This document shows positions 2,985-53,526 of a stretch of 54,006 bases of DNA, in pieces. The stretch is taken from the NCBI GenBank assembly GCA_964524915.1, contig CAZGEB010000003.1:3263-57268 (forward strand), in the 5' to 3' direction. The position numbers and the translations under genes are program-made. The DNA comes from an uncultured Candidatus Saccharibacteria bacterium (GTDB taxonomy: Bacteria; Patescibacteriota; Doudnabacteria; UBA920). The notes beneath the pieces are model-generated. The model saw only the letters and a program-made list of their open reading frames with translations. It searched no databases and was not told where the DNA came from. Position 1 is the first letter of the stretch. Each line of letters begins with the position of its first letter.

Positions 2985-5018
2985 ATGGAAAGAATCAAGC
3001 GGCATTTGTTTTGGGTACTCCCATCTCTAATTTTTCTGACAGCCCTAGCCTTTAGAACCTACAAACTTTTTATACTCCCAGCCGGACTTTTTCCCGATGA
3101 AGCAGCTAACGGACTGGACATTAATTTAATGGAGCAAGGCCATCTTCAGCCATTTTACGAAAGAGGTAATGGCAGAGAAGCCTTGTTTTTTTATATGCTT
3201 TGGGGTAGTGTAAAAATTTTTGGCAGAAGTCCTTTTGCCCATCATTTAGTCTCAGCCCTGGTTGGCACCCTGGCTGTAGCGGCTTGCTATTTTGTAACCA
3301 AAGAAATATTCAGACTCAAGGCTCACTCCTCACGTCTCACGGCTTATCTGGCCGCCTTCCTCATGGCCGTCTCTTCCTGGCACGTAGTTTTATCCCGCAC
3401 AGCCTTTAGGGCCAATTTAATTCCACTTTTGTCAGCCCTCACTCTGTGGGCGATGTTGAAAATAGTAACAAGAGACAAGCAAAAAGTAACAAGTAAACAG
3501 AATCCCGCTGCAAAATCGCTATTCGCTATTCGCTATTCGCTATTCCCCATCCTTTTCGGCATTTTCTTCGCCCTTGGATTTTATACCTACATAGCTTTTC
3601 GCATCATGATTCCGCTTGTGGGTATTTTGATTCTCTGGCCAACCGCGGCCTTTCTTCTGTCATCCCGTGCTACGACACGGGATCTTTACTTAATTTCTAA
3701 TAGCGAACAAAAAAGTGAAGCCGCCGAACTCCATACGGACAATAAAACAAAAAACGATTTCGGATCAAAACTCAAAATATTATTTCAAAATTTTTGGAAA
3801 CCTTTTTTGATTGCCGCAGTCAGTTTTGTAATAGTCATCTCCCCACTAGCTCATTATTTCTATACTCACCCAGGCAGCTTTGTTGGCCGAAGCGGACAAG
3901 TAAGTGTGTTTAATGTGGAATTAAATCATGGAGATCTAATCGGCACTATTTGGCAAGTAAGCAAGGACTCCATACTCGCCTACTTTACCCACGGAGATGT
4001 AAATTGGCGACACAATATTTCAGGCTTTCCTTTTCTTTCTCCTTTCATCTCGCCTTTTTTCGCCATTGGCTTAATTCTGTGTCTCTTGTTCGCTATTCGC
4101 TACACGCTAAGGCCTATACGCTATCGCCAGAACTACCCTGAATTTCTCCTTACTGGATGGTTTTTTGCCATGCTCTTGCCGGTGATCATGACGGCCGAAG
4201 GCATCCCTCACGGACTAAGAAGTATCGGCACTATTCCAGTAGTATTTATTATCACAGCTTATGGAATGTGTAAGGTTTATAATTGTCTCATGTTGTATGT
4301 CATCCCGGACAAGGCCGAGGCTTTGAGAGGCCGTGATCCGGGATCTTTATTAGAAAGCAAGGATACGGATGCTGAAAAAATATTGCAAGTAAGCAAAGAT
4401 CCCGGACATTTTCCCAAAGCGGAAAATTCCGGGATGACAGAAAAGATTGTCCGCGGGCTATCTTTTCTATATATTGCGTTTCTCCTCATCGCCTTACCCG
4501 TTCAAACTTATCAACTCTATTTTGTTACGGCTGCCAATTCTTCTGAAAACTACGAAGCTTTTCGTGGCGATCTGACAGTTGTCAGCGAATATTTAAAACA
4601 GTATGGACACAGAGAAACCACTTATTTAATTCTAGATAAATTTTCTGTGCAAACCACGGACTACCTCACTACCAAAGTCGGCAAGACTTCTTGCGACAGA
4701 GACTCCGCCTATCGCCCAAATAACTGTATAGATGATGCAAGTAACAAACCTTATACTCAAGTAGACCCAGAGGATTCTTGGCTAGGAGGTATGGCCCCCT
4801 CTCCTTCTGAGGAGAGGGCTGGGAAGAGGTTGGCTTCCGATAATACCAAACCTTCCCCTTACACTTATGGACTTAAAAGCGGAGACGAAATCGTTTTTAC
4901 CATGAGTTCACTTTTCGACATTAAAAAATTCAAACAGTACCACCCGAATGTAAAACTAAAACTTTTTGAAAAAAACACTGCGGGAAAATACATTATGGCA
5001 GTATATGTGGTTCAGTAA
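2985..5018 (+). CDS. GT-C fold glycosyltransferase, ArnT/PMT-like (GT39/GT83 type)
   Basis: N-terminal LFPDEAANGLD loop motif, many TM helices and a soluble C-terminal domain. The gene is interrupted by several repeat-derived peptide segments. Confidence 0.75.
   Translation: MERIKRHLFWVLPSLIFLTALAFRTYKLFILPAGLFPDEAANGLDINLMEQGHLQPFYERGNGREALFFYMLWGSVKIFGRSPFAHHLVSALVGTLAVAACYFVTKEIFRLKAHSSRLTAYLAAFLMAVSSWHVVLSRTAFRANLIPLLSALTLWAMLKIVTRDKQKVTSKQNPAAKSLFAIRYSLFPILFGIFFALGFYTYIAFRIMIPLVGILILWPTAAFLLSSRATTRDLYLISNSEQKSEAAELHTDNKTKNDFGSKLKILFQNFWKPFLIAAVSFVIVISPLAHYFYTHPGSFVGRSGQVSVFNVELNHGDLIGTIWQVSKDSILAYFTHGDVNWRHNISGFPFLSPFISPFFAIGLILCLLFAIRYTLRPIRYRQNYPEFLLTGWFFAMLLPVIMTAEGIPHGLRSIGTIPVVFIITAYGMCKVYNCLMLYVIPDKAEALRGRDPGSLLESKDTDAEKILQVSKDPGHFPKAENSGMTEKIVRGLSFLYIAFLLIALPVQTYQLYFVTAANSSENYEAFRGDLTVVSEYLKQYGHRETTYLILDKFSVQTTDYLTTKVGKTSCDRDSAYRPNNCIDDASNKPYTQVDPEDSWLGGMAPSPSEERAGKRLASDNTKPSPYTYGLKSGDEIVFTMSSLFDIKKFKQYHPNVKLKLFEKNTAGKYIMAVYVVQ
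3516..3543 (+). repeat. Heptamer tandem array (TCGCTAT)x4, in frame in GT-C gene 1
   Basis: Four perfect copies, translated as SLFAIRYSLF. A degenerate second tract lies at about 4087-4130. Confidence 0.9.
3657..3686. mobile_element. Family-A hairpin element, single module, in frame in a GT-C gene
   Basis: CTGTCATCCCGTG-CTACGA-CACGGGATCTTTA. It is 31 of 32 nt identical to the intergenic copy at 21767-21798 and is translated as LSSRATTRDL. Confidence 0.8.
4298..4440. mobile_element. Family-A composite mini-element (two inverted hairpin modules plus spacer), in frame
   Basis: Left end TGTCATCCCGGACAAGG..TCCGGGATC (4298-4346), right end GATCCCGGACA..TTCCGGGATGACA (4397-4439). The outward termini are a perfect 12-bp inverted repeat TGTCATCCCGGA. 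Translated as VIPDKAEALRGRDPGS..KDPGHFPKAENSGMT. Confidence 0.8.
4795..4833 (+). repeat. Family-B element, in frame in GT-C gene 1
   Basis: CCCTCTCC-TTCTGA-GGAGAGGG-CTGGGAAGAGGTTGG, translated as PSPSEERAGKRL. Confidence 0.8.
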
Positions 5019-5021
5019 GTC

Positions 5022-5049
5022 AAGAATAGCGAATAAAGAATAAAGAATT
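5022..5049 (+). repeat. Heptamer array (AAGAATA-like)x4 abutting the ATG of ORF 5050
   Basis: AAGAATA GCGAATA AAGAATA AAGAATT, followed directly by ATG. Confidence 0.8.
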
Positions 5050-5469
5050 ATGAAAAAAGAAACCCCACGAGCAAGCCAAGTGGAAAAACTCAGACAAATC
5101 GCCAAAGAACTGGCATATCGGGCGATAGAAATTTCTAATAAATACTGCGACGCGGAACAAGGGATGGATGGTTGGAGCATGCATGATTTGGTTGGCTCTA
5201 TTGCCGGGGGTGCTGCCGCGGCAGCAGAAATAGATGTTTTAGAAGAGACCCCAGGAAAACACGACGAAGAAATATCAGAAAGAATGCGATTAATGAACTT
5301 GTATTTAGAACTATTAGAAAGAAATGCAGAAGCTCGCCAGCAAGAATTGCAATCTGAAAAACGCGGCAATGAGCAAGCTTGGCTGGCAGCCCTCAAAGCT
5401 AGAGAACAAGGACTTTCACATCACACAGAATATATAAAAGCTGTATTAAAACAATTTAACTATCTATAG
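5050..5469 (+). CDS. Hypothetical helical/coiled-coil protein
   Basis: 139-aa ORF with an ATG start and a charged helical composition, lying between the two GT-C genes. The antisense ORF 4956..5396 looks like a shadow. Confidence 0.5.
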   Translation: MKKETPRASQVEKLRQIAKELAYRAIEISNKYCDAEQGMDGWSMHDLVGSIAGGAAAAAEIDVLEETPGKHDEEISERMRLMNLYLELLERNAEARQQELQSEKRGNEQAWLAALKAREQGLSHHTEYIKAVLKQFNYL

Positions 5470-5492
5470 ACCATCTACATAAAAACAAAACC

Positions 5493-7334
5493 ATGACCAA
5501 ATATAAAAACTATTTATTGTTGGGTATTATAGTTACTGTGGGACTAGGGATGCGGATTTTTCACAATCTAGATATTTCCCTTTGGCATGATGAGGCTTTT
5601 TCAGCACTGCTCATAAAATATCCATGGGGAGAAATGATGCATAGAATTGGTCTAGACGTGCATCCACCTATGTACTATATAGCTTTAAGATTTTGGAGTT
5701 ATATTTTTGGCGACTCACTGGCCGCTCTCCGAGGGTTTTCTATTTTCTTTGGAACAGCAACGATCATAGCAGTGTATGAATTGGTGAAGGCGATTACGAG
5801 TGGCGAGTGGCGAGTGACTAGCACAAAACAAAACTTTTCTGTCATCCCGACCTCCTCTTCTGTCATCCCGGCGGAGGCCGGGATCCACACAAAGCTGGAA
5901 AAATCAAAAGCAATAGATGATAAAGAAAAATACATGGATCCCGGTCTTCCCGCGGTCGCCCAAAGCAGCTCCCTTGTAGAAACCGGGATGACAAGAAATC
6001 TAGTCACTCACAATACGATATACGCTCCACTCCTGGCAGCTCTTCTTGTGGCGATCAATCCTTTTCAAATTGGTTTTTCTCTAGAGGCCCGCATGTATAC
6101 TTTTGGCGCTTTTTTGGCTGTACTAGCTGCGTATTTTCTTGTCCGTGCATTAAAAGCTACAAGCTACAAGCTACAAGCTACAAGCTATTTTATGTTTGCG
6201 GTAGCTTCCGGACTAGCCATACTTACTCATTATTATCTGATCTTCACTATAGCAGCACTATGTTTGTATGGACTCTTCCAAACAGCTACAAGCTACAAGC
6301 TACAAGCTACAAGCTTAAAAGCACAAATAGCAAATTACAAATCTAAAACTTGGCAATTAATCTTTTCTTATATTATTATCGGAGGATCCTTCCTTCCCTG
6401 GCTAAAAATATTTTTCTTTCAGTTCAAACAAGTAGGAAACGGGTACTGGATCCCAAAAATGGACCTCTGGAGCATGCCATCCACTATTTACGAAATGCTA
6501 GTAGGCGCTGGGGTAGATGCCCACAAAACCAGCACACAAATAATTCTGATTCTGGTAACGGCTGCGATTGTTTATATTACGATTTCATTTTTACGCAAAT
6601 CAAATCTCGCTTACAAAGGCTTGATTATTTTTGCCTGGCTAGCTCCTTTTGTGGGCTCGCTACTTTTTGCAGCGCTTGCCAAACTAAAAGGCAGCGATTC
6701 CTCTGTGTACTTGATTCGCTATTTTGCTTTTTCAGCTCCCTTTTTTAGTATAATGCTCGCCACGTGGCTAGGAGAATTACGGGTTATACCTGCCCGCTCG
6801 GATGGTGATAGTTACGGGTTACGGGTTGCAAAACTCAGGATCTTTATTCTTTATTCTTTATTCTTTATTCTGCTAATAACCAATCTCTACACTTTTTCAC
6901 ACTACTGGAAAGAACTAAATGTAAAAGAAAAACCAGGCATGAAAGCCGCCGTGGAACTTTTAAAAAATAATACCAAGCAAGGTGATATTTTGATCGTGGG
7001 AAGCAGCTTTGAATTTTTTAATCTGAAGTATTACTTGAACCAGCTATCAGCTAACAGCTATCAGCTAACAGCTAAGTTGTACAGTGGTGGACAAACAACT
7101 ATAGACAACATGCCGCACTTTGCTGGCACGGCAATTCTAACTAACGAGGATTTGCTTCCAAATTTTGAAAGCATTGATTCTGGTAATACTGTATGGCTGC
7201 TTTGGACCAATGGTTTTGGTGGAAATAAACCAGAAGTACCAAGTAATTGGACGCAAGAAGAAGAACACGGCTTCGCAGAAGTCAGACCATATGTAGGCAC
7301 TTGGATTGTAGTGGATAAATATAAAATCAAATAA
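5493..7334 (+). CDS. GT-C fold glycosyltransferase, ArnT/PMT-like (second paralog)
   Basis: ISLWHDEAFSALL motif after TM1, multiple TM helices and a soluble C-terminal domain. It carries many repeat-derived insertions. Confidence 0.75.
   Translation: MTKYKNYLLLGIIVTVGLGMRIFHNLDISLWHDEAFSALLIKYPWGEMMHRIGLDVHPPMYYIALRFWSYIFGDSLAALRGFSIFFGTATIIAVYELVKAITSGEWRVTSTKQNFSVIPTSSSVIPAEAGIHTKLEKSKAIDDKEKYMDPGLPAVAQSSSLVETGMTRNLVTHNTIYAPLLAALLVAINPFQIGFSLEARMYTFGAFLAVLAAYFLVRALKATSYKLQATSYFMFAVASGLAILTHYYLIFTIAALCLYGLFQTATSYKLQATSLKAQIANYKSKTWQLIFSYIIIGGSFLPWLKIFFFQFKQVGNGYWIPKMDLWSMPSTIYEMLVGAGVDAHKTSTQIILILVTAAIVYITISFLRKSNLAYKGLIIFAWLAPFVGSLLFAALAKLKGSDSSVYLIRYFAFSAPFFSIMLATWLGELRVIPARSDGDSYGLRVAKLRIFILYSLFFILLITNLYTFSHYWKELNVKEKPGMKAAVELLKNNTKQGDILIVGSSFEFFNLKYYLNQLSANSYQLTAKLYSGGQTTIDNMPHFAGTAILTNEDLLPNFESIDSGNTVWLLWTNGFGGNKPEVPSNWTQEEEHGFAEVRPYVGTWIVVDKYKIK
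5797..5817 (+). repeat. Heptamer array (CGAGTGG)x3, in frame in GT-C gene 2
   Basis: CGAGTGG CGAGTGG CGAGTGA, translated as SGEWRVT. Confidence 0.8.
5839..5995. mobile_element. Family-A composite mini-element with an extra partial terminus, in frame
   Basis: Partial CTGTCATCCCGA (5839-5850), then the full module TGTCATCCCGGC-GGAG-GCCGGGATCC (5861-5886). An AT-rich spacer follows, then the inverted module GGATCCCGGTCTTCCCGCGG..GAAACCGGGATGACA (5936-5993). Confidence 0.8.
6155..6187 (+). repeat. Heptamer array (AGCTACA)x4+, in frame in GT-C gene 2
   Basis: Four perfect copies plus a partial copy, translated as KATSYKLQATSY. Confidence 0.9.
6284..6316 (+). repeat. Heptamer array (AGCTACA)x4+, second copy in GT-C gene 2
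   Basis: Four perfect copies plus a partial copy, translated as TATSYKLQATSLK. Confidence 0.9.
6777..6868 (+). repeat. Composite of TTACGGG heptamers, a GC-rich core and (TCTTTAT)x4, in frame in GT-C gene 2
   Basis: TTACGGG TTATACC TGCCCGCTCGGATGGTGATAG TTACGGG TTACGGG .. TCTTTAT x4 (6841-6868), translated as LRVIPARSDGDSYGLRVAKLRIFILYSLFFIL. Confidence 0.8.
7041..7075 (+). repeat. Heptamer array (CAGCTAW)x5, in frame in GT-C gene 2
   Basis: CAGCTAT CAGCTAA CAGCTAT CAGCTAA CAGCTAA, translated as QLSANSYQLTAK. Confidence 0.85.
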
Positions 7335-13603: not shown

Positions 13604-13613
13604 GATTTAATAT

Positions 13614-13655
13614 AGTGAATAGTGAATAGTGAATAGTGAATAGTGAATAGTGAAT
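13614..13655 (+). repeat. Heptamer array (AGTGAAT)x6, 10 nt upstream of the lysS start codon
   Basis: Six perfect copies, followed by the GC-rich segment CTGCCCGCC..GGCAGGCGGG and a further TGAATAGTGA. Confidence 0.9.
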
Positions 13656-13734
13656 AGACTGCCCGCCAGTGAAAGGCTCAGGCAGGCGGGTGAATAGTGA
13701 CGAACCTTGTCCACCACTCACTTCTTATAGCACA

Positions 13735-13760: not shown

Positions 13761-13765
13761 CTTCT

Positions 13766-13814
13766 CTTACTTCTTACTTCTTACTTCTTACTTCTTACTT
13801 CTTACTTCTTACTT
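13766..13814 (+). repeat. Heptamer array (CTTACTT)x7
   Basis: Seven perfect copies directly after the family-D hairpin. Confidence 0.9.
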
Positions 13815-13820
13815 CAAACA

Positions 13821-21766: not shown

Positions 21767-21798
21767 CTGTCATCCCGTGCCACGACACGGGATCTTTA
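21767..21798. mobile_element. Family-A hairpin element, intergenic (proS start / GIY-YIG stop)
   Basis: CTGTCATCCCGTG-CCACGA-CACGGGATCTTTA. Confidence 0.8.
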
Positions 21799-21804
21799 AT
21801 TTAT

Positions 21805-22101
21805 TTACTGAATTATTTCACTATATAAATCTTTCCATTGAGAGTTAGACTTGTTAATCAGTTCCAATTTCCATTGCCTTTTCCACTCCTTGACTTGCTT
21901 TTCTTTTTTAATAGCTGTTTCTATTGAGTTTGTGGACTCAAACCAAACTAACAGGTGAACAAAATATTTTTCTGTAAATCCTTTTATCAGATTATGCTTA
22001 TGTTCATAAACCCTTCTGATCAGATCATTAGTCACGCCGACATGCAGAACTCCATAGGGTTTACTTGCCATGATATAGACATAATAGACATTGCTCTGCA
22101 T
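21805..22101 (-). CDS. Stand-alone GIY-YIG nuclease-domain protein (COG2827/YhbQ-like)
   Basis: YYVYIMASKPYGVLHVGVTNDLIRRVYEHK..FTEKY..LVWFE..AIKKEKQVKEWKRQWK. It is flanked on both sides by family-A hairpins. Confidence 0.85.
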   Translation of the reverse strand: MQSNVYYVYIMASKPYGVLHVGVTNDLIRRVYEHKHNLIKGFTEKYFVHLLVWFESTNSIETAIKKEKQVKEWKRQWKLELINKSNSQWKDLYSEIIQ

Positions 22102-22110
22102 TTGAGTAAA

Positions 22111-22173
22111 GATTCCGGCTCTGTCCCACTACGCTAAAGCTTCGCGGGATCTACGAGAGGCCGGAATGACAGA
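22111..22173. mobile_element. Family-A hairpin module in inverted orientation, just upstream of the GIY-YIG start
   Basis: GATTCCGGCTCTGTCCCACTACGCTAAAGCTTCGCGGGATCTACGAGAGGCCGGAATGACAGA. Stem ATTCCGGC(C)TCT / AGAGGCCGGAAT. Confidence 0.75.
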
Positions 22174-23988: not shown

Positions 23989-24033
23989 AATAATAAAATT
24001 TTTAATTAAATCTATTGTTTCTCTATAACCTAT

Positions 24034-24067
24034 AAGGTATAAGGTATAAGGTAATATTCTACCTTAT
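24034..24067. repeat. Heptamer array (AAGGTAT)x3 plus one inverted copy
   Basis: AAGGTAT AAGGTAT AAGGTAA TATTCT ACCTTAT. It lies between the frr start and the stop of the BNR lipoprotein gene. Confidence 0.8.
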
Positions 24068-26567: not shown

Positions 26568-26619
<52 letters not shown>

Positions 26620-26631
26620 AGTAATTATACC

Positions 26632-27795
26632 ATGCAAACTCCTCCCCCCAATTTAATAGTCATTGCCGGCCCCACATCCAGCGGAAAATCTGAGCTAGCG
26701 GTCAAAATCGCAAAAAAAATTGGCGGGGAAATCATTTCCGCAGATTCCCGCCAAGTTTACCGCGGTTTAAATATTGGAACAGGCAAAGTTGAGGGAGAAT
26801 GGCAGAAAGTATCCTTAATCCGTAATCCTTTATCCTTAACAAACACAAAACAGCAAACAGGAAAAGATAAAAATGTAATTTCAAATTCAAACCCCCCGCT
26901 CTTAGTCAAGGATCAAAGATTAAAGATTAAGGATAGCAATGTTTTTGTTTACAAAAAAGTATTACACCACTGTATAGACTTTGTAAACCCCAAAAAACAA
27001 TACACTGTCAATGATTTTAAAAAAGATGGACAAAAAGCCATTGAGGATATTTATTCTCGCGGAAAAATCCCGATCATCTGTGGCGGCACAGGCCACTATA
27101 TAGATGCACTGATTTTTGATCAAAATATTCCAGAAGTTCCACCAGATGAAAAATTTAGAAAAAAAATGGAAAAAAAATCCGCAGAAAATCTTTTCTTGCT
27201 ATTGAGCAAAAAAGATCCAGCCCGCGCGAGTAATATAGATAGAAATAATAAACGTCGCCTCATCCGCGCCCTAGAAATCATCCACCATACCAAAAAACCC
27301 GTCCCCTATTTTTCCCCCTCCCCTAGTGAGGGGAGGGCTGGGGAGAGGTTGCACCACGACCGCATAGACCTGCCCACTCCTGCTGACCGGGAATCCATAT
27401 TATCAAATCCTGGATCCTGGATCGCAGTCGCAGAGCCTCCTTTGTCCGGGACGACAAGATTAGAAATAATACTTTTGACTCCACCCCGCCAAGAACTTTA
27501 CCAAAAAATCGAAAAGCGCCTCATTCAAAGAGTGAAGATGGGCATGGTTGAAGAAGTGCTAAAGTTACACCAAAACGGCCTATCCTGGAAACGCATGGAG
27601 TCCCTCGGTCTAGAGTACCGTCACATTGCAAGATTTTTACAAGAAAATAAAAATGTATTCCTAAAAACTAAAAACTCGCAACTAAAAACTCAATTTCTAT
27701 CTTCCTCTCACTTTCAAACTCTCCTTCAAGAAAGCAAAAATTATAGTAAACGCCAAGAAACTTGGTTTAGAAAATATAAAACAGCCGCAAACTAA
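26632..27795 (+). CDS. miaA: tRNA dimethylallyltransferase
   Basis: IAGPTSSGKSELAV P-loop, ISADSRQVYRGLNIGTGK and GGTGHYIDALIF. At 387 aa it is enlarged by several repeat-derived insertions. Confidence 0.9.
   Translation: MQTPPPNLIVIAGPTSSGKSELAVKIAKKIGGEIISADSRQVYRGLNIGTGKVEGEWQKVSLIRNPLSLTNTKQQTGKDKNVISNSNPPLLVKDQRLKIKDSNVFVYKKVLHHCIDFVNPKKQYTVNDFKKDGQKAIEDIYSRGKIPIICGGTGHYIDALIFDQNIPEVPPDEKFRKKMEKKSAENLFLLLSKKDPARASNIDRNNKRRLIRALEIIHHTKKPVPYFSPSPSEGRAGERLHHDRIDLPTPADRESILSNPGSWIAVAEPPLSGTTRLEIILLTPPRQELYQKIEKRLIQRVKMGMVEEVLKLHQNGLSWKRMESLGLEYRHIARFLQENKNVFLKTKNSQLKTQFLSSSHFQTLLQESKNYSKRQETWFRKYKTAAN
26811..26934. repeat. Insertion in miaA bounded by inverted heptamer arrays
   Basis: ATCCTTA ATCCGTA ATCCTTT ATCCTTA (26811-26838) .. 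CAAGGAT CAAAGAT TAAAGAT TAAGGAT (26907-26934), translated as VSLIRNPLSLTN..KDQRLKIKDS. Confidence 0.8.
27314..27351 (+). repeat. Family-B element, in frame in miaA
   Basis: CCCTCCCC-TAGTGA-GGGGAGGG-CTGGGGAGAGGTTG, translated as PSPSEGRAGERL. Confidence 0.8.
27386..27458. mobile_element. Degenerate family-A-like module fused to heptamers, in frame in miaA
   Basis: ACCGGGAATCC..ATCCTGGATCCTGGATCGCAGTCGCAG..GTCCGGGACGACAAG, translated as DRESILSNPGSWIAVAEPPLSGTT. Confidence 0.45.
27661..27695 (+). repeat. Degenerate heptamer array (CTAAAAA-like)x5, in frame in miaA
   Basis: CTAAAAA CTAAAAA CTCGCAA CTAAAAA CTCAATT, translated as LKTKNSQLKTQF. Confidence 0.7.
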
Positions 27796-29323: not shown

Positions 29324-29420
29324 CTGTCATTGCGAGAAGTCGGCTCTGCGACGACGAAGCAATCCAGAAAAATACATGGATTGCCGCGTCCCTACGAAAC
29401 GTAGGGCCTCGCAATGACGG
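29324..29420. mobile_element. Family-A-related ~97-bp palindromic element (GTCATTGCGAG termini)
   Basis: CTGTCATTGCGAGA..CCTCGCAATGACGG with inner hairpins GCAATCCA..TGGATTGC and CCCTACG-AAA-CGTAGGG. Confidence 0.7.
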
Positions 29421-34469: not shown

Positions 34470-36086
34470 TTACTGTAATTTTTTACGCAAGACTTCATTT
34501 ACTAGACTGGGATTGCCCTGGCCTTTCAATTCTTTCATACACTGCCCCACCAAAAAACCAAAAGATTTTTCTTGTCCAGCTTTAAAGTCCTGCACAGCCT
34601 TTTCATTTTCCGATAAAACTTTGTCTATAGCGGCTTCAATTACAGTAGCATCACTCACCTGAGACAGCCCAAGATCTTTGACTATTTCACTTGGATCGCC
34701 ACCCTTTTCAAACATCACTTTGAAAATTTGCTTTGCGGCCGCAGAAGACACTTCTCCCCGGCTTATCATCAAAATCAATTCCGCTAAATTTTCTGGCGTT
34801 ACAAAAGTTTCATCTGGATTTTTTCCTGCAATTTTCAATGCTGCAGAAAAATCCTGCAAACACCAGTTGGCGGCAAGTTTGATCAGCTTGACCAGATTTG
34901 AATCAATGCTGGATTCCGGTCTTCCCGCGCTCGAGGACTCGCTTGTGGAAACCGGAATGACGGGAGAGGGTGACAGATCAGACAGCCATGCGACTATTTC
35001 ACTCACAACATTTTCAAAATAAAAAGTTAATTCTTTCCAATTCAAAAGATTTTCAATGTCTGCAGCGGGAAGTGCGTATTCACCAGCAAACCTCAGTCTT
35101 TTTGCAGACGGCAATTCAGGCAATTCTGCACGCAATTTTTCTAAATACTCTTTGGTAAAATGCAGTGGTGGTAAATCTGGATCTGGTAAATATCTATAGT
35201 CATTTGCTTCTTCTTTGCTTCTCTGCTCTACAGTTTTATTTAGCTTCTCGTTCCACCCCATGGTAACTTGCTTAGGGGTCACGCCCTGAAGTCGCAATTC
35301 ACTTTGCCTTACTATTTCGTAATTAATCGCTTGCTCTACAAATTTAAAAGAATTAATATTTTTCACTTCCACTTTATAAGGCGGCAAACCCTCTTCACCA
35401 GGAAGCCTCACAGAAATACTTGGCTCGCACCTCATACTCCCCTTTTCCATATCTGCATCGCTGGCCCCCACATAGCGAGCAATGCGCTGTAATTCTTCCA
35501 AATATTTTCTAGCTTCTTCAGCTGACTCTATAACTGGATGAGTAACTATTTCCAAAAGTGGTGTACCGGCACGATTATAATCAACCAAAGAATAAGGCAA
35601 GCCATCTGGGTGCATATTTTTGCCCGCATCCTCTTCTAAATGCGCGCGTTGAATCAGCACCCGCTTTGCATGTACATTTTTCCTCTCTCCTTGTGAGGAG
35701 AGAGCGCCGCCGCCTTGGGCGGGAGAGAGGTTGTCTGAAACTTGTATTTCTATCCACCCCTCTTGGGCGATCGGCTGATCCAACTGAGAAATCTGATAAC
35801 CTTTTGGTAAATCAGGATAAAAATAATGCTTACGATCAAATTTACTCCACTCGTCTATTCTGCAATTCAAAGCCAAACCCATCATAGCAGCCAACCTCAC
35901 GGCTTCTTCATTAATCACAGGCAACGTCCCTGGATGCGCCAAAACCACTTCATCAATATTGGTATTTGGATCTTTTACGCTTTGATCATTTGGGGCAGAA
36001 GAGAACATCTTCGACTTGGTACGAAGTTGAATATGCACCTCAAGCCCAATCACTGGTTTTAATAATTGTATATTATTGTCTATCAT
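34470..36086 (-). CDS. gatB: Asp/Glu-tRNA amidotransferase subunit B
   Basis: IGLEVHIQL, RAHLEEDAGK, VEVKNINSF, EANDYRYLPDPDLPP and a C-terminal YqeY-like domain. It carries two in-frame repeat elements. Confidence 0.95.
   Translation of the reverse strand: MIDNNIQLLKPVIGLEVHIQLRTKSKMFSSAPNDQSVKDPNTNIDEVVLAHPGTLPVINEEAVRLAAMMGLALNCRIDEWSKFDRKHYFYPDLPKGYQISQLDQPIAQEGWIEIQVSDNLSPAQGGGALSSQGERKNVHAKRVLIQRAHLEEDAGKNMHPDGLPYSLVDYNRAGTPLLEIVTHPVIESAEEARKYLEELQRIARYVGASDADMEKGSMRCEPSISVRLPGEEGLPPYKVEVKNINSFKFVEQAINYEIVRQSELRLQGVTPKQVTMGWNEKLNKTVEQRSKEEANDYRYLPDPDLPPLHFTKEYLEKLRAELPELPSAKRLRFAGEYALPAADIENLLNWKELTFYFENVVSEIVAWLSDLSPSPVIPVSTSESSSAGRPESSIDSNLVKLIKLAANWCLQDFSAALKIAGKNPDETFVTPENLAELILMISRGEVSSAAAKQIFKVMFEKGGDPSEIVKDLGLSQVSDATVIEAAIDKVLSENEKAVQDFKAGQEKSFGFLVGQCMKELKGQGNPSLVNEVLRKKLQ
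34911..34962. mobile_element. Family-A hairpin module, in frame in gatB
   Basis: GGATTCCGGTCTTCCCGCGCTCGAGGACTCGCTTGTGGAAACCGGAATGACGG. It has the same architecture as 5936-5993 and is translated on the minus strand as PVIPVSTSESSSAGRPESS. Confidence 0.8.
35682..35733 (+). repeat. Family-B element variant with an extra CCGCC hairpin, in frame (antisense) in gatB
   Basis: CTCTCTCC-TTGTGA-GGAGAGAG-CGCCGCCGCCTTGGGCGGGAGAGAGGTTG. It is read on the minus strand as NLSPAQGGGALSSQGER. Confidence 0.7.
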
Positions 36087-36268: not shown

Positions 36269-37744
36269 TCAACTTAACTTTGGAAAATTCTTATGCCAAT
36301 CTGTTGCTTCTTGGAAGGCCATGCCTACATCAAACAAAACTTGCTCGCCCCACTGCGGACCAATCAATTGCAATCCTACTGGTAGATCCACGTCTCCACC
36401 ATCCACAGGCCTACCAAAACCGCAAGGCAAAGACAAAGCAGGGAGCCCCGCCAAAGAAGATGGGATATTGAGCTGATCTGCAATATAACCAAAAAGAGGA
36501 TCATCAGCTGCACCTTCTATTTTCACCGCCACATTTGGACTACTTGGAGCTGCCAAAACATCTACTTTTTTAAATACTTCTGCAAATTCATCTATAATGA
36601 GTCGCCGCACTTTCTGCGCCCGTTTGTAATAAGCATCGTAATAACCAGAAGACAATACATAAGTACCAGTCAAAATTCTTCTCTTTGCCTCATCGCCAAA
36701 ACCCTCGTCGCGAGTTTTTTCGTACACATCCAAAAGACTATTCGCCTCACTAGACACATGACCATAACGAATACCATCAAAGCGAGACAAATTTGAAGCT
36801 ATCTCAGCCGGGGCTACAATAGCATAAACCAAAGATCCGTATTTTGTATTTGGTAAATCCACCTCCACAAGCTCGGCCCCCAATTTTTCTAATTCTCTGA
36901 TACCATCCATAACCCTTTCTCTTACATCCCCCTCCATACCATCTACAAAGTACTGTTTGGGAACCCCAACCTTAAGCCCCTGCAAGCTTGTAGCTTGTAG
37001 CTTGTAGCTTGTAGCCTTATCTCCAGTCGTGGAGTCTTTCGGGTCTCTTCCAGACATAACATTTGCCAAAACTATCAAGTCTTTTACAGAGTAAGCATGA
37101 GCTCCAGGACTATCCAAAGAAGATCCCATAGCAATCACTCCATATCTAGAAACTCTTCCATAGGTAGGCTTCCAACCACTTACTCCGCAAAGCGAAGAAG
37201 GCTGACGAATACTTCCGCCAGTTTCCGTACCCAAAGTCCAAGGAGCCAAGCCCGCCGCCAAAGAAGCCGCGCTTCCACCACTAGATCCACCAGGAATTCG
37301 AGATTTATCCCATGGATTTTTACTGGGACCAAAAGCAGAAGTAGCAGTAGAAGATCCGTGAGCAAACTGGTCCAAATTAGTTTTACCCAAAAGTACACCT
37401 TTTTGTTCTTTGATTTTTGCAATCACAGTAGCATCAAAAGGCGGTGTATAATTTTCCAAAATTTTGGAGGCGGCTGTGGTTTTCACTCCACGAGTGACAA
37501 ATAAATCCTTTGCTGCATACGGAATTCCACAAAGCAGTGGATTTTCTCCAGACAATTTCATAAACTCATCTGCTTGTCTTGCCTCTTCTAGAGCTTCATT
37601 TTCACAAACTGTAATAAAAGAATTTAATTCCCCATCGAGCTTTTGAATACGCGCCAAAAAATACTTCGTCATTTCCACTGACGAAATTTCTTTATCGTCC
37701 AACAACTTTCTTAATTCAGAAATTCCTAAATACTCTAATTGCAT
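36269..37744 (-). CDS. gatA: Asp/Glu-tRNA amidotransferase subunit A
   Basis: Amidase signature GGSSGGSAASLAAG and GTETGGSIRQPSSLCGV. It carries an in-frame heptamer array (KATSYKLQATS). Confidence 0.95.
   Translation of the reverse strand: MQLEYLGISELRKLLDDKEISSVEMTKYFLARIQKLDGELNSFITVCENEALEEARQADEFMKLSGENPLLCGIPYAAKDLFVTRGVKTTAASKILENYTPPFDATVIAKIKEQKGVLLGKTNLDQFAHGSSTATSAFGPSKNPWDKSRIPGGSSGGSAASLAAGLAPWTLGTETGGSIRQPSSLCGVSGWKPTYGRVSRYGVIAMGSSLDSPGAHAYSVKDLIVLANVMSGRDPKDSTTGDKATSYKLQATSLQGLKVGVPKQYFVDGMEGDVRERVMDGIRELEKLGAELVEVDLPNTKYGSLVYAIVAPAEIASNLSRFDGIRYGHVSSEANSLLDVYEKTRDEGFGDEAKRRILTGTYVLSSGYYDAYYKRAQKVRRLIIDEFAEVFKKVDVLAAPSSPNVAVKIEGAADDPLFGYIADQLNIPSSLAGLPALSLPCGFGRPVDGGDVDLPVGLQLIGPQWGEQVLFDVGMAFQEATDWHKNFPKLS
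36985..37012 (-). repeat. Heptamer array (AGCTTGT)x4, the reverse complement of the AGCTACA arrays, in frame in gatA
   Basis: Four perfect copies, read on the minus strand as KATSYKLQATS. This is the same peptide as in GT-C gene 2. Confidence 0.9.
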
Positions 37745-41236: not shown

Positions 41237-41274
41237 TTTTTAATATTATTTTTTTAAAAAAATAATATTAAAAA
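41237..41274. repeat. 38-nt perfect A/T-only palindrome
   Basis: TTTTTAATATTATTTTTTT|AAAAAAATAATATTAAAAA, immediately next to the terminator at 41277-41298. Confidence 0.9.
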
Positions 41275-52374: not shown

Positions 52375-52401
52375 AGCAGTAAGTAGTAAGTAGTAAGTAG
52401 T
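52375..52401 (+). repeat. Heptamer array (AGTAGTA-like)x4, 17 nt upstream of the dedA start, fused to a family-D hairpin
   Basis: AGCAGTA AGTAGTA AGTAGTA AGTAGT, then CCGCCGCCGCTAAAGCTATGGCGG. Confidence 0.85.
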
Positions 52402-52794: not shown

Positions 52795-52846
52795 CCTGTC
52801 ATCCCGAATCCCGCCGACGGCGGGACGAACGCGATCCGGAATCCAG
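52795..52846. mobile_element. Family-A hairpin element, intergenic (atl / HAD)
   Basis: CCTGTCATCCCGAATCCCGCCGACGGCGGGACGAACGCGATCCGGAATCCAG, with inner hairpin TCCCGCC-GAC-GGCGGGA. Confidence 0.75.
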
Positions 52847-52883
52847 TTTTTAAAAATTAATATTATTAATACGAAAATTCTTT

Positions 52884-53489
52884 ATGATAAAAGCAATAAC
52901 ATTTGACTTAGACGGTGTTTATTTTATAAATGGTAAATCAAATTTCATCAAAACTCTAGGGGAAATGGGAGTTGATGAAGCGGAGGCCAAAAGAGTATTC
53001 CTCTCAAGCCCTGAAATGAATTTTCAGTACAAAACAGGAAAAATGACAGATGAACAATTTTGGTCTTGGGCTTTAGCAGAATGGAAACTAGACATAACCG
53101 TAGAAGAAATTATCAATTTACTAATAAAAGGCTATGAAGTAGATGATAATGTTGTTAATGTAGTTAAAAAAGCAAGGGCTAACGGTTATAAAACACTTAT
53201 TTGCACAAATAATTTTCCCGCTCGCATAAATGGACTGCAAAAAAGGTTTGGGTTTTTAGATAACTTTGATGTAACTGTAATTTCAAGTGAAGTGGGCGCA
53301 ATTAAACCCCAAAAAGAATTATTTGAAGCGCTAATAAACCAATCTGGAGTAAAACCTTCTGAAATATTTTACGCTGATGATTATGACGAAGCAATAGAAA
53401 CCGCGAAAAATCTTAACATTGAGACATTGCATTACACTGACTTTCCAAGTTTTTTAGATAAATTAAAAGAATTAGGTGTAAATCTATAA
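52884..53489 (+). CDS. HAD-superfamily hydrolase
   Basis: Motif I ITFDLDGV, motif II LICTNN, motif IV FYADDYDEA. Confidence 0.8.
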   Translation: MIKAITFDLDGVYFINGKSNFIKTLGEMGVDEAEAKRVFLSSPEMNFQYKTGKMTDEQFWSWALAEWKLDITVEEIINLLIKGYEVDDNVVNVVKKARANGYKTLICTNNFPARINGLQKRFGFLDNFDVTVISSEVGAIKPQKELFEALINQSGVKPSEIFYADDYDEAIETAKNLNIETLHYTDFPSFLDKLKELGVNL

Positions 53490-53497
53490 CGTAACTG

Positions 53498-53526
53498 GAT
53501 CCCGTGTCGCGGCACGGGATGACAGA
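53498..53526. mobile_element. Family-A hairpin element, inverted orientation, intergenic
   Basis: GGATCCCGTGTCGCGGCACGGGATGACAG, the reverse complement of CTGTCATCCCGTGCCGCGACACGGGATCC. Confidence 0.8.

Follow-up and report, generated by a model that had tools for sequence, protein, structure and literature searches.

A probable SRM repeat dimer translated within a glycosyltransferase gene of a Patescibacteria genome

The DNA analysed here, a 54,006-nt stretch from a Doudnabacteria-like member of the Patescibacteria (the window; all coordinates are window positions), carries a 143-bp palindromic unit inside GT39a, a gene for a membrane glycosyltransferase, and, ~17 kb from that unit, a homologue of the nuclease gene ssn with hairpins of the same kind on both sides. 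We consider the 143-bp unit, with a probability of about 0.85, to be an intragenic head-to-head (HH) dimer of Ssn-related motifs (SRMs) with its tags facing outward, SRMs being equivalent to the CGTC- or TGTC-tagged repetitive extragenic palindromic (REP) hairpins and to NTS-like repeats. An earlier note on this DNA, made from the sequence alone, had instead taken the unit for a structure resembling a MITE, a miniature transposable element with inverted repeats. The coordinates of all features are collected in Table 1.

The unit opens with TGTCATCCCGGA at 4298-4309 and closes with the exact reverse complement, TCCGGGATGACA, at 4428-4439, just as the earlier note had described, and a second, inner perfect 12-nt inverted repeat links 4337-4348 with 4395-4406. 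Each half is a hairpin with a perfect 8-bp stem: ATCCCGGA at 4302-4309 pairs with TCCGGGAT at 4337-4344 in the left module (M2), and ATCCCGGA at 4399-4406 pairs with TCCGGGAT at 4428-4435 in the right, inverted module (M3). In both modules TGTC directly precedes ATCCCGGA, so that the stem starts with AT, and the 3' end of the stem reads TCCGGGAT-C-TTT, with the C directly 3' of the palindrome and a 3-nt tail after it. The loop of M2 encloses an inner GGCC stem, and that of M3 (21 nt) an inner stem of 7 bp. Folded as single-stranded DNA (ssDNA), M2 reaches -13.2 kcal/mol (z = -3.9) and M3 a z of -4.7, and TTCTGTC stays unpaired in these folds. The tags, at 4298 and 4439, point outward on either side of an A-rich spacer whose sequence is unique in the window and whose length falls inside the 20-100 bp range of HH dimers. 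The division into two palindromic modules proposed in the earlier note survives, with slightly different boundaries (4298-4348 and 4395-4439) and a spacer of 46 rather than 50 nt; the apparent perfect 12-bp terminal inverted repeat arises because two copies of a tagged palindromic hairpin sit with their tags outward.

Allowing up to two mismatches, the terminal 12-mer has 12 occurrences in the window, where 2.2 would be expected and 100 shuffles gave 5 at most, so other copies with the same termini do exist. RNA folding of 4292-4446 gave -57.7 kcal/mol (z = -5.7) and DNA folding of the unit gave z = -7.7; in neither case was any of 200 shuffles as good. With copy-number and folding statistics this far beyond the shuffles, a chance palindrome is scarcely credible. 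The same applies to an assembly artefact: palindromic repeats can cause mis-assemblies in metagenomes, but here the frame is read through without a break, an independent fragment of the protein collection (P0241) has the identical sequence, and the second full dimer of the window, dimer B, recurs in an assembly made independently from another sample (L201).

Open reading frame (ORF) 2985..5018 reads the unit as exactly 47 codons, from GTC (4299) to ACA (4439), corresponding to aa 439-485, and the peptide that had been quoted as lying inside a membrane glycosyltransferase is its true translation. The only stop-free frames of the unit are this sense frame and one antisense frame. GT39a scores 24 bits against Pfam PMT_2, slightly under the curated cut-off of 26.1 bits, and has hundreds of homologues at E < 1e-140, among which several carry the name GT39 or ArnT-like; its relatives belong to Candidatus Doudnabacteria and other Patescibacteria, the best being 55% identical. 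The 47-residue segment faces a gap in all 18 aligned orthologues, which argues against its being ancestral, and GT39a retains every column that is invariant among the 18. A second insertion in GT39a (aa ~225-258), missing in 17 of the 18, begins with the solo module M1 (3658). AlphaFold modelled GT39a with a mean pLDDT of 74 and a pTM of 0.79 and gave the insert a pLDDT of ~47-60 between the confident helices 418-439 and 482-515; the peptide is thus a predicted disordered loop between two transmembrane helices. The 90% clusters of SRM-bearing proteins contained near-identical fragments only, with no presence/absence variants. A protein-database search with the joined translations of both dimers returned the window's own fragment only, and since it also missed P0121 and P0122, which carry the conserved block of dimer B, it is uninformative on other proteins.

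An insert of this kind might be kept for a function of its own, either as an mRNA or DNA structure (a translation pause, or a barrier to recombination or transformation) or as a selected surface loop. The predicted structure is very stable, the 224/225 identity of the dimer B block in a gene that is 85% identical could reflect selection at the nucleotide level, and in Neisseria NTS and SsnA restrict the integration of transforming ssDNA (PMC11893778). However, the segment is missing from all 18 orthologues, the peptide is predicted to be disordered, a gathering-threshold Rfam scan of the whole window gave zero matches, and no terminator emerged when 4150-4600 was scanned for terminators and promoters. 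A gene-specific role is unlikely because the same repeat family occurs in unrelated genes and in intergenic DNA. We therefore regard retention for its own function as quite improbable, with a role at the DNA level kept open by the conserved dimer B block. A known RNA family, intron or riboswitch was rejected on the two Rfam scans, the second of which, a permissive one of 4200-6100, produced only sub-threshold noise such as mir-166 and snoU54.

We scanned the window for GTCAT followed by a stem and, adding degenerate copies and one partial head, counted 14 modules, 8 of which are intragenic: GT39a and its GT39 paralogue GT39b have three each (in GT39b with the partial head included), GatB has one, and MiaA has a degenerate one. 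Nine modules are canonical, with GTCAT, an 8-bp stem starting from the A of the tag, and then C. Every module folds as ssDNA in a single register with TTCTGTC unpaired, and the modules of this genome have a run of pyrimidines, usually TTC, ahead of the tag. The published SRM search motif, HGTCWYN(0-2)YYVSBRHN(0-5)WNVSBRGN(0-2)RNCYNB, matched three modules (3658, 21768 and 53495) against 0.13 expected in shuffles. The long-loop modules form a sub-family of their own, in which TTCyACAAG...GCGGGAAG is common to M5 and M11; M4, with a 4-nt loop, is 4 substitutions from the closest SRM beside ssn genes. Paralogous modules within the window differ by 7-25%. Both GatB and MiaA hold extra segments relative to solved homologues, the GatB linker that carries M11 having ~35 additional residues compared with PDB 3al0_B, and we tentatively assign M8, in MiaA, as an SRM-like remnant. 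The spacer of the variant dimer at 29326..29419 has AGAAAAATACATGGAT in common with dimer B.

Ssn nucleases, the family listed in CDD as cd10448, are single-domain GIY-YIG proteins of about 95 aa, and the ssn homologue of the window encodes a protein of 98 aa that matches Pfam PF01541 over residues 6-78 (E = 2.8e-11). Against the N. gonorrhoeae ssnA locus, which holds 10 canonical NTS repeats in 1.67 kb, tblastn aligned aa 8-97 at 50% identity (E = 4e-25; the criterion for SsnA homology in the Chenal paper is E < 1e-10), and NCBIfam and PDB sequence searches with the nuclease returned no matches. Residues Y9, R30, H34, E67 and N86 are conserved. M6 and M7 (21768-22172) bracket the ORF with their tags outward and have the same tail class, ATC-TTT, as the 143-bp dimer. 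Compared with the family consensus, the resident protein carries Y20H, R66K, N16Y, T18V, P87S and E83N at otherwise conserved positions, a divergence that could reflect relaxed selection or altered specificity.

Querying one genome per species with the 98-aa protein, we recovered 80 loci at 43-63% identity, from Methylotenera, Legionella, Coxiellaceae, Rickettsiales, Sphingomonas, Ignavibacteria, Dehalococcoidales, Wolfebacteria and others. A GTCATyCCGG-loop-CCGGrATCCAG hairpin lies ~50-100 nt upstream of the nuclease homologue in 38 of these loci, an inverted copy lies downstream in 28, and 22 have hairpins on both sides, tags outward. Matches to the published motif in the 80 loci have a density of 1.78/kb up to 250 nt from the gene and of 0.07/kb beyond that distance, a ~25-fold difference, and one Wolfebacteria locus (L020) has the same stem as the window (ATCCCGTG...CACGGGAT). 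Repeat and nuclease are thus associated across phyla.

CGTC REPs have a CGTC or TGTC tag, stems of 8-9 bp starting with AT, loops of 4-5 nt and a 3-bp tail (Di Nocera 2013, PMC3733652). They occur mostly as HH dimers, tags outside, with spacers of 20-100 bp, and intragenic copies are known, the dimers among them encoding 20-30 residues in frame; the survey that described them equated them with Neisseria dRS3 and Rickettsia RPE-4 and RPE-6, found them in five phyla, with the candidate phyla radiation (CPR) not among them, and stated that a dedicated enzyme was unknown (PMC3733652). The window dimer agrees with this description in the TGTC variant of the tag, the 8-bp AT-first stem, the 3-bp tail, the tags-outward arrangement and the in-frame intragenic copies, and departs from it in encoding 47 residues instead of 20-30 and in its long loops.

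NTS is the Neisseria repeat CGTCATTCCCGCGMAVGCGGGAATCYRG, and related SRMs flank ssnA, whose product, a GIY-YIG enzyme of 94 aa, recognises the hairpin solely in its ssDNA form and nicks it a few nucleotides 5' of the tag (Chenal 2025, Nat Commun, PMC11893778). Binding depends most critically on the C after the palindrome, and cleavage on the three bases before it; the loop may change in sequence or be extended without loss of recognition in vitro (PMC11893778). The catalytic residues are Y6, Y17 and E64, and the Y17A substitution abolishes cleavage (PMC11893778). The window resembles this system in the (C/T)GTCAT tag overlapping the hairpin, the AT-start stem with C after it, and the ~95-aa single-domain GIY-YIG gene between repeats, a pair that is spread across phyla. 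It differs in its Patescibacteria host, a group absent from the text of the Chenal paper (PMC11893778), in loops of 21-40 nt with inner stems versus ~4 nt, in the intragenic position of 8 of 14 modules versus 2% of NTS in N. meningitidis (PMC11893778), in the H at the second catalytic Y of the nuclease, and in the extra conserved yTTC 5' of the tag. In our reading, the resident nuclease would bind and cut the window modules, and it or a relative would mobilise them. Our literature search found no paper describing these repeats in Patescibacteria.

A classical MITE, by comparison, would be a deletion derivative of an insertion sequence (IS), moved in trans by a DDE-type transposase whose recognition sites would be the 12-bp termini in double-stranded form. 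The perfect 12-bp terminal inverted repeats, a length of 143 bp within the MITE size range, the several copies of the termini in the window and the absence of the segment from orthologues all fit such an origin, and the unit resembles Correia/NEMIS and RUP elements in being short and non-coding, with inverted termini, in or beside genes. But the termini are the tag and stem of SRM hairpins, and their inverted symmetry follows from the dimer arrangement; the sole window gene bracketed by such ends encodes a GIY-YIG nuclease, as in the 80 loci of other phyla; the dispersed dimers lack target-site duplications; and solo modules are common, which is typical of REPs and not of MITEs. Classical MITEs derive from IS elements with a DDE transposase and have target-site duplications, neither of which was seen for the window unit: there is no direct repeat at the junctions of the 4298 copy (GTA/TGTCAT...ATGACA/GAA). 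BLASTN of the unit against plasmids in distant mode gave no match. The MITE-like identity put forward in the earlier note is therefore very unlikely, as the modules are TGTC-tagged REP hairpins (SRM), and the partner described for these is a small ssDNA nuclease of the GIY-YIG type instead of a transposase.

Dimers of this stem type are found well beyond the window, at a minimum of 120 loci in a metagenome scan. Among the matches listed were 38 complete dimers of 81-149 nt, whose lengths modulo 3 were 0, 1 and 2 in 12, 9 and 17 cases, respectively. The dimer has no fixed length and no intrinsic 3n length, so the in-frame state of the window unit reflects survivorship, and the idea that the length is always a multiple of three does not hold. 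Because the genome is ~90% coding and only one sense frame of the unit is open, in-frame, stop-free copies in tolerant loops are what selection leaves. In one assembly, a 92-nt dimer at 86-91% identity is the sole stretch shared by three loci with unrelated flanks; homology stops exactly at TGTCAT and ATGACA, and the stems differ by two-sided changes. In other assemblies, then, the dimer is the unit of dispersal. Among the matches listed, we found no target-site duplication at the 38 dimers, and no pairs with homologous flanks in an all-against-all BLAST of the 120 dimer loci.

These dispersed copies bear on whether the window unit was inserted as such. An SRM-ssn-SRM element could have lost its nuclease gene in place, or two solo SRMs could have been inserted independently. 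The ssn unit and the dimer are alike in their tags-outward layout and ATC-TTT tail class, solo modules are present in the same gene (3658) and in GatB, and the paralogous GT39 gene could have buffered a temporary knockout. Yet decay in place requires that a 400-bp insertion with stops persisted in a gene whose invariant residues are all intact, and an alignment of the dimer spacers with ssn-proximal sequence showed no convincing similarity. Furthermore, the dimers of another assembly were dispersed as units with sharp boundaries, and HH dimers are the predominant form of the superfamily. We find it unlikely that the window unit arose in either of these ways.

Several observations weigh against our reading of the unit as an SRM dimer with a nuclease partner. 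The loops of M2 and M3, at 27 and 21 nt, exceed the 4-5 nt typical of CGTC REPs, and because of them both modules fail the published SRM motif. Position 20 of the resident nuclease, the second catalytic tyrosine (SsnA Y17), is H, a residue found in 5 of 81 homologues where 73 have Y, and at position 66 it has K in place of the R of 78 of the 81; the nuclease may be weakened or inactive. SRM mobility has never been demonstrated experimentally (PMC11893778). The nearest GT39a orthologue is only 55% identical, so the 4298 copy has no near-identical empty site, and its exact insertion edges and any target duplication are unreadable. Finally, the two full dimers of the window are not close copies of each other, and there is therefore no sign of a recent burst here.

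By analogy, we see the 143-bp unit as standing to SRM-ssn-SRM as a REPIN stands to its RAYT, or a MITE to its IS: because its tags-outward layout and ATC-TTT tail are those of M6 and M7, it would correspond to the ends of an SRM-ssn-SRM unit without the gene. The dimer or a precursor would have been inserted in a variable loop of the glycosyltransferase gene, and the insertion would have survived because it has no stop in the frame used, its length is a whole number of codons and it forms a disordered excursion that can be tolerated between transmembrane helices, its translation being a by-product. The Chenal authors noted the IS-like NTS-ssnA-NTS layout and the analogy with REP/RAYT, with mobility hypothesised only (PMC11893778). 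Like REPIN-RAYT systems, the window has inverted doublets of a tagged hairpin as the dispersed unit, a small nuclease gene between the same hairpins, a predicted recognition of the ssDNA hairpin and no target duplication. In contrast, its tag is (C/T)GTC, TGTC in the unit, rather than GTAG, and its partner has a GIY-YIG fold rather than the HUH-Y1 (IS200/IS605-like) fold; the remaining ORFs of the window were not screened for RAYT. SRM/Ssn and REPIN-RAYT are analogous, not homologous.

A contrast between a repeat and its surroundings is seen at dimer B, which lies within an inserted block of GT39b (aa 101-175; nt 5793-6017). The block is present in GT39b and in its close relative P0122, which is 85% identical and encoded on Logan contig L201 from another sample, and is missing in nine more distant orthologues. 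At the DNA level, GT39b shares 85% identity with L201; of the 218 differences, 123 fall at third codon positions. The inserted block is identical at 224 of 225 positions, including 139 of 139 in the dimer, a contrast between inside and outside seen in a single pair of genomes. Within the gene, the longest stretch free of mismatches covers 198 nt (5820-6017) and the second longest 86 nt, and none of 20,000 random placements of the mismatches gave a 198-nt run. With the edges of the block set independently, from the protein alignment, the right end of the run coincides exactly with the insertion edge and its left start lies ~27 nt inside the other edge. There are three possible causes of this identity: acquisition or exchange of the block once the two lineages had separated, constraint on it at the nucleotide level, or its homogenisation against other copies, the last being weakened by the divergence among paralogous modules noted above. 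Partial heads (TCTGTCATCCCGAC, TCTGTCACCC) occur 15-21 nt upstream of a full module in GT39b (5840-5851) and in GatB (34975-34985) and may be traces that earlier or abortive insertions left at the same place.

Since the block is nearly identical within a diverged gene and the edges of the run approximate those of the insertion, SRM dimers could be currently active replicators in this Patescibacteria lineage, either through mobilisation of the whole block or through exchange between lineages by site-specific re-insertion or conversion. We hold this tentatively and judge the odds to be against it. If true, it would be the first comparative evidence of Ssn-associated repeats moving as units, and Ssn would be the GIY-YIG counterpart of RAYT, in an enzymatic class that is new among mobile elements with ssDNA hairpins and remodels essential proteins as well.

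Table 1. Positions of genes, repeat modules and other repeats in the window
Feature	Position	Strand	Description
GT39a, host gene	2985..5018	+	GT39/ArnT-like membrane glycosyltransferase, 677 aa
M1, solo SRM	3658..3687	+	6-nt loop; published motif matched; frame differs (LSSRATTRD)
M2, left SRM module	4298..4348	+	TGTC tag, 8-bp stem ATCCCGGA/TCCGGGAT, 27-nt loop, C+TTT tail
Spacer between M2 and M3	4349..4394	.	46 nt, A-rich; sequence unique in window
M3, right SRM module, inverted	4395..4439	-	tag, stem and C+TTT tail as in M2
GT39b	5493..7334		paralogous GT39 gene
Inserted block in GT39b	5793..6017	+	heptamer array, partial head 5840-5851, HH dimer B
Dimer B	5861-5993		second full dimer
M4, in dimer B	5861-5887	+	4-nt loop
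M5, in dimer B	5935-5993	-	
M6, flanks nuclease gene	21768..21797	+	tag outward, C+TTT tail; published motif matched
ssn homologue	21805..22101	-	98-aa single-domain GIY-YIG protein
M7, other flank of nuclease gene	22109..22172	-	tag outward, stem ATTCCGGC, 40-nt structured loop, C+TTT tail
M8, degenerate SRM-like remnant (tentative)	27395..27457	-	tag TGTCGT; inside MiaA insertion aa 225-276
Variant HH dimer	29326..29419	.	intergenic; TGCGAG-type stem, GTCATTGCGAG...CTCGCAATGAC
GatB	34470-36086		
M11, solo long-loop SRM	34913..34962	-	translated VIPVSTSESSSAGRPES; in GatB interdomain linker insertion
M12, imperfect long-loop SRM	52797..52851	+	intergenic, upstream of HAD hydrolase ORF
HAD-family hydrolase ORF	52884..53489		between M12 and M13
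M13, SRM	53495..53524	-	intergenic, downstream of HAD hydrolase ORF; published motif matched
Heptamer arrays	3516-3545, 5797-5816, 6154-6187, 6284-6315, 6841-6871, 7041-7075		
Heptamer arrays, continued	13612-13657, 13765-13815, 24031-24053, 26568-26619, 26811-26839, 36985-37015, 52378-52401		

The window is rich in other repeats as well. M12 and M13 enclose the HAD-family hydrolase ORF with their tags outward, in the same layout as around the nuclease gene, which resembles the 'NTS-gene-NTS' arrangement of Neisseria. At least 13 perfect or near-perfect tandem arrays of heptanucleotides (period 7, 3-7 copies), each with its own unit, are scattered along the window; they resemble the STRR heptamer repeats of cyanobacteria. 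Many of them occur within genes and are translated, one instance being ATSYKLQATSYKLQ in GT39b, and since 7 is not divisible by 3, an array that gained or lost a unit would change the reading frame. Over the array at 6154, the sequence of L201 has diverged strongly (patch 6143-6204). MiaA has another palindrome at 26810-26935 (aa 56-110), translated as an insertion of ~49 residues relative to solved homologues and built of 34-nt arms of ATCCTTA-type heptamers that are 82% complementary around a 58-nt spacer. A third family of translated hairpins (4793-4831, 27314-27352 and ~10979) has the form CCCCTCTCC-N6-GGAGAGGG followed by CTGGGrAGAGGTTG and reads PSPSEERAGKRL in GT39a and PSPSEGRAGERL in MiaA. 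GatB has a further insertion of ~20 residues relative to PDB homologues, SDNLSPAQGGGALSSQGERKNVH at aa ~116-136, which is not an SRM, and an intergenic segment at 41237-41274 is a perfect 19+19-nt palindrome composed of A and T only (TTTTTAATATTATTTTTTT / AAAAAAATAATATTAAAAA).

Translated palindromes have a reported precedent in the Rickettsia palindromic elements (RPE-1 and its relatives), which Ogata et al. are said to have described in 2000 as palindromic repeats inserted in frame in functional genes. As in the window, the host reportedly has a small, host-dependent genome, and the repeats are said to be translated and tolerated in loops. RPE-1 is reportedly longer and of another sequence family, which sets it apart by description, and we know of no nuclease partner described for it.

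The tagged hairpin, the HH dimer form and the Ssn partner nuclease were already known; the novelty lies in the Patescibacteria host, in loops that are long and structured, in the large proportion of intragenic modules and in the puzzle of the conserved block. For annotation, an odd translated palindrome is given a known identity, and a recurrent source of spurious-looking low-complexity loops in CPR proteins (VIP...GMT and SSR...RDD peptides) is recognised. The Ssn/SRM system is extended to a Patescibacteria genome in which, at a coding density of ~90%, more than half of the repeats lie inside genes, including the housekeeping genes for GatB and MiaA, a parallel to the Rickettsia palindromic elements in another reduced, host-dependent lineage. 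Natural SRM variants with structured loops of 21-40 nt offer test cases for the specificity rules of Ssn, as does a nuclease in which a catalytic position has changed from Y to H, in an enzyme family that has been proposed as an ssDNA tool. The near-perfect block in a diverged gene bears on the mobility of SRMs, a question that dates from the time when CGTC REPs were described without a dedicated enzyme.

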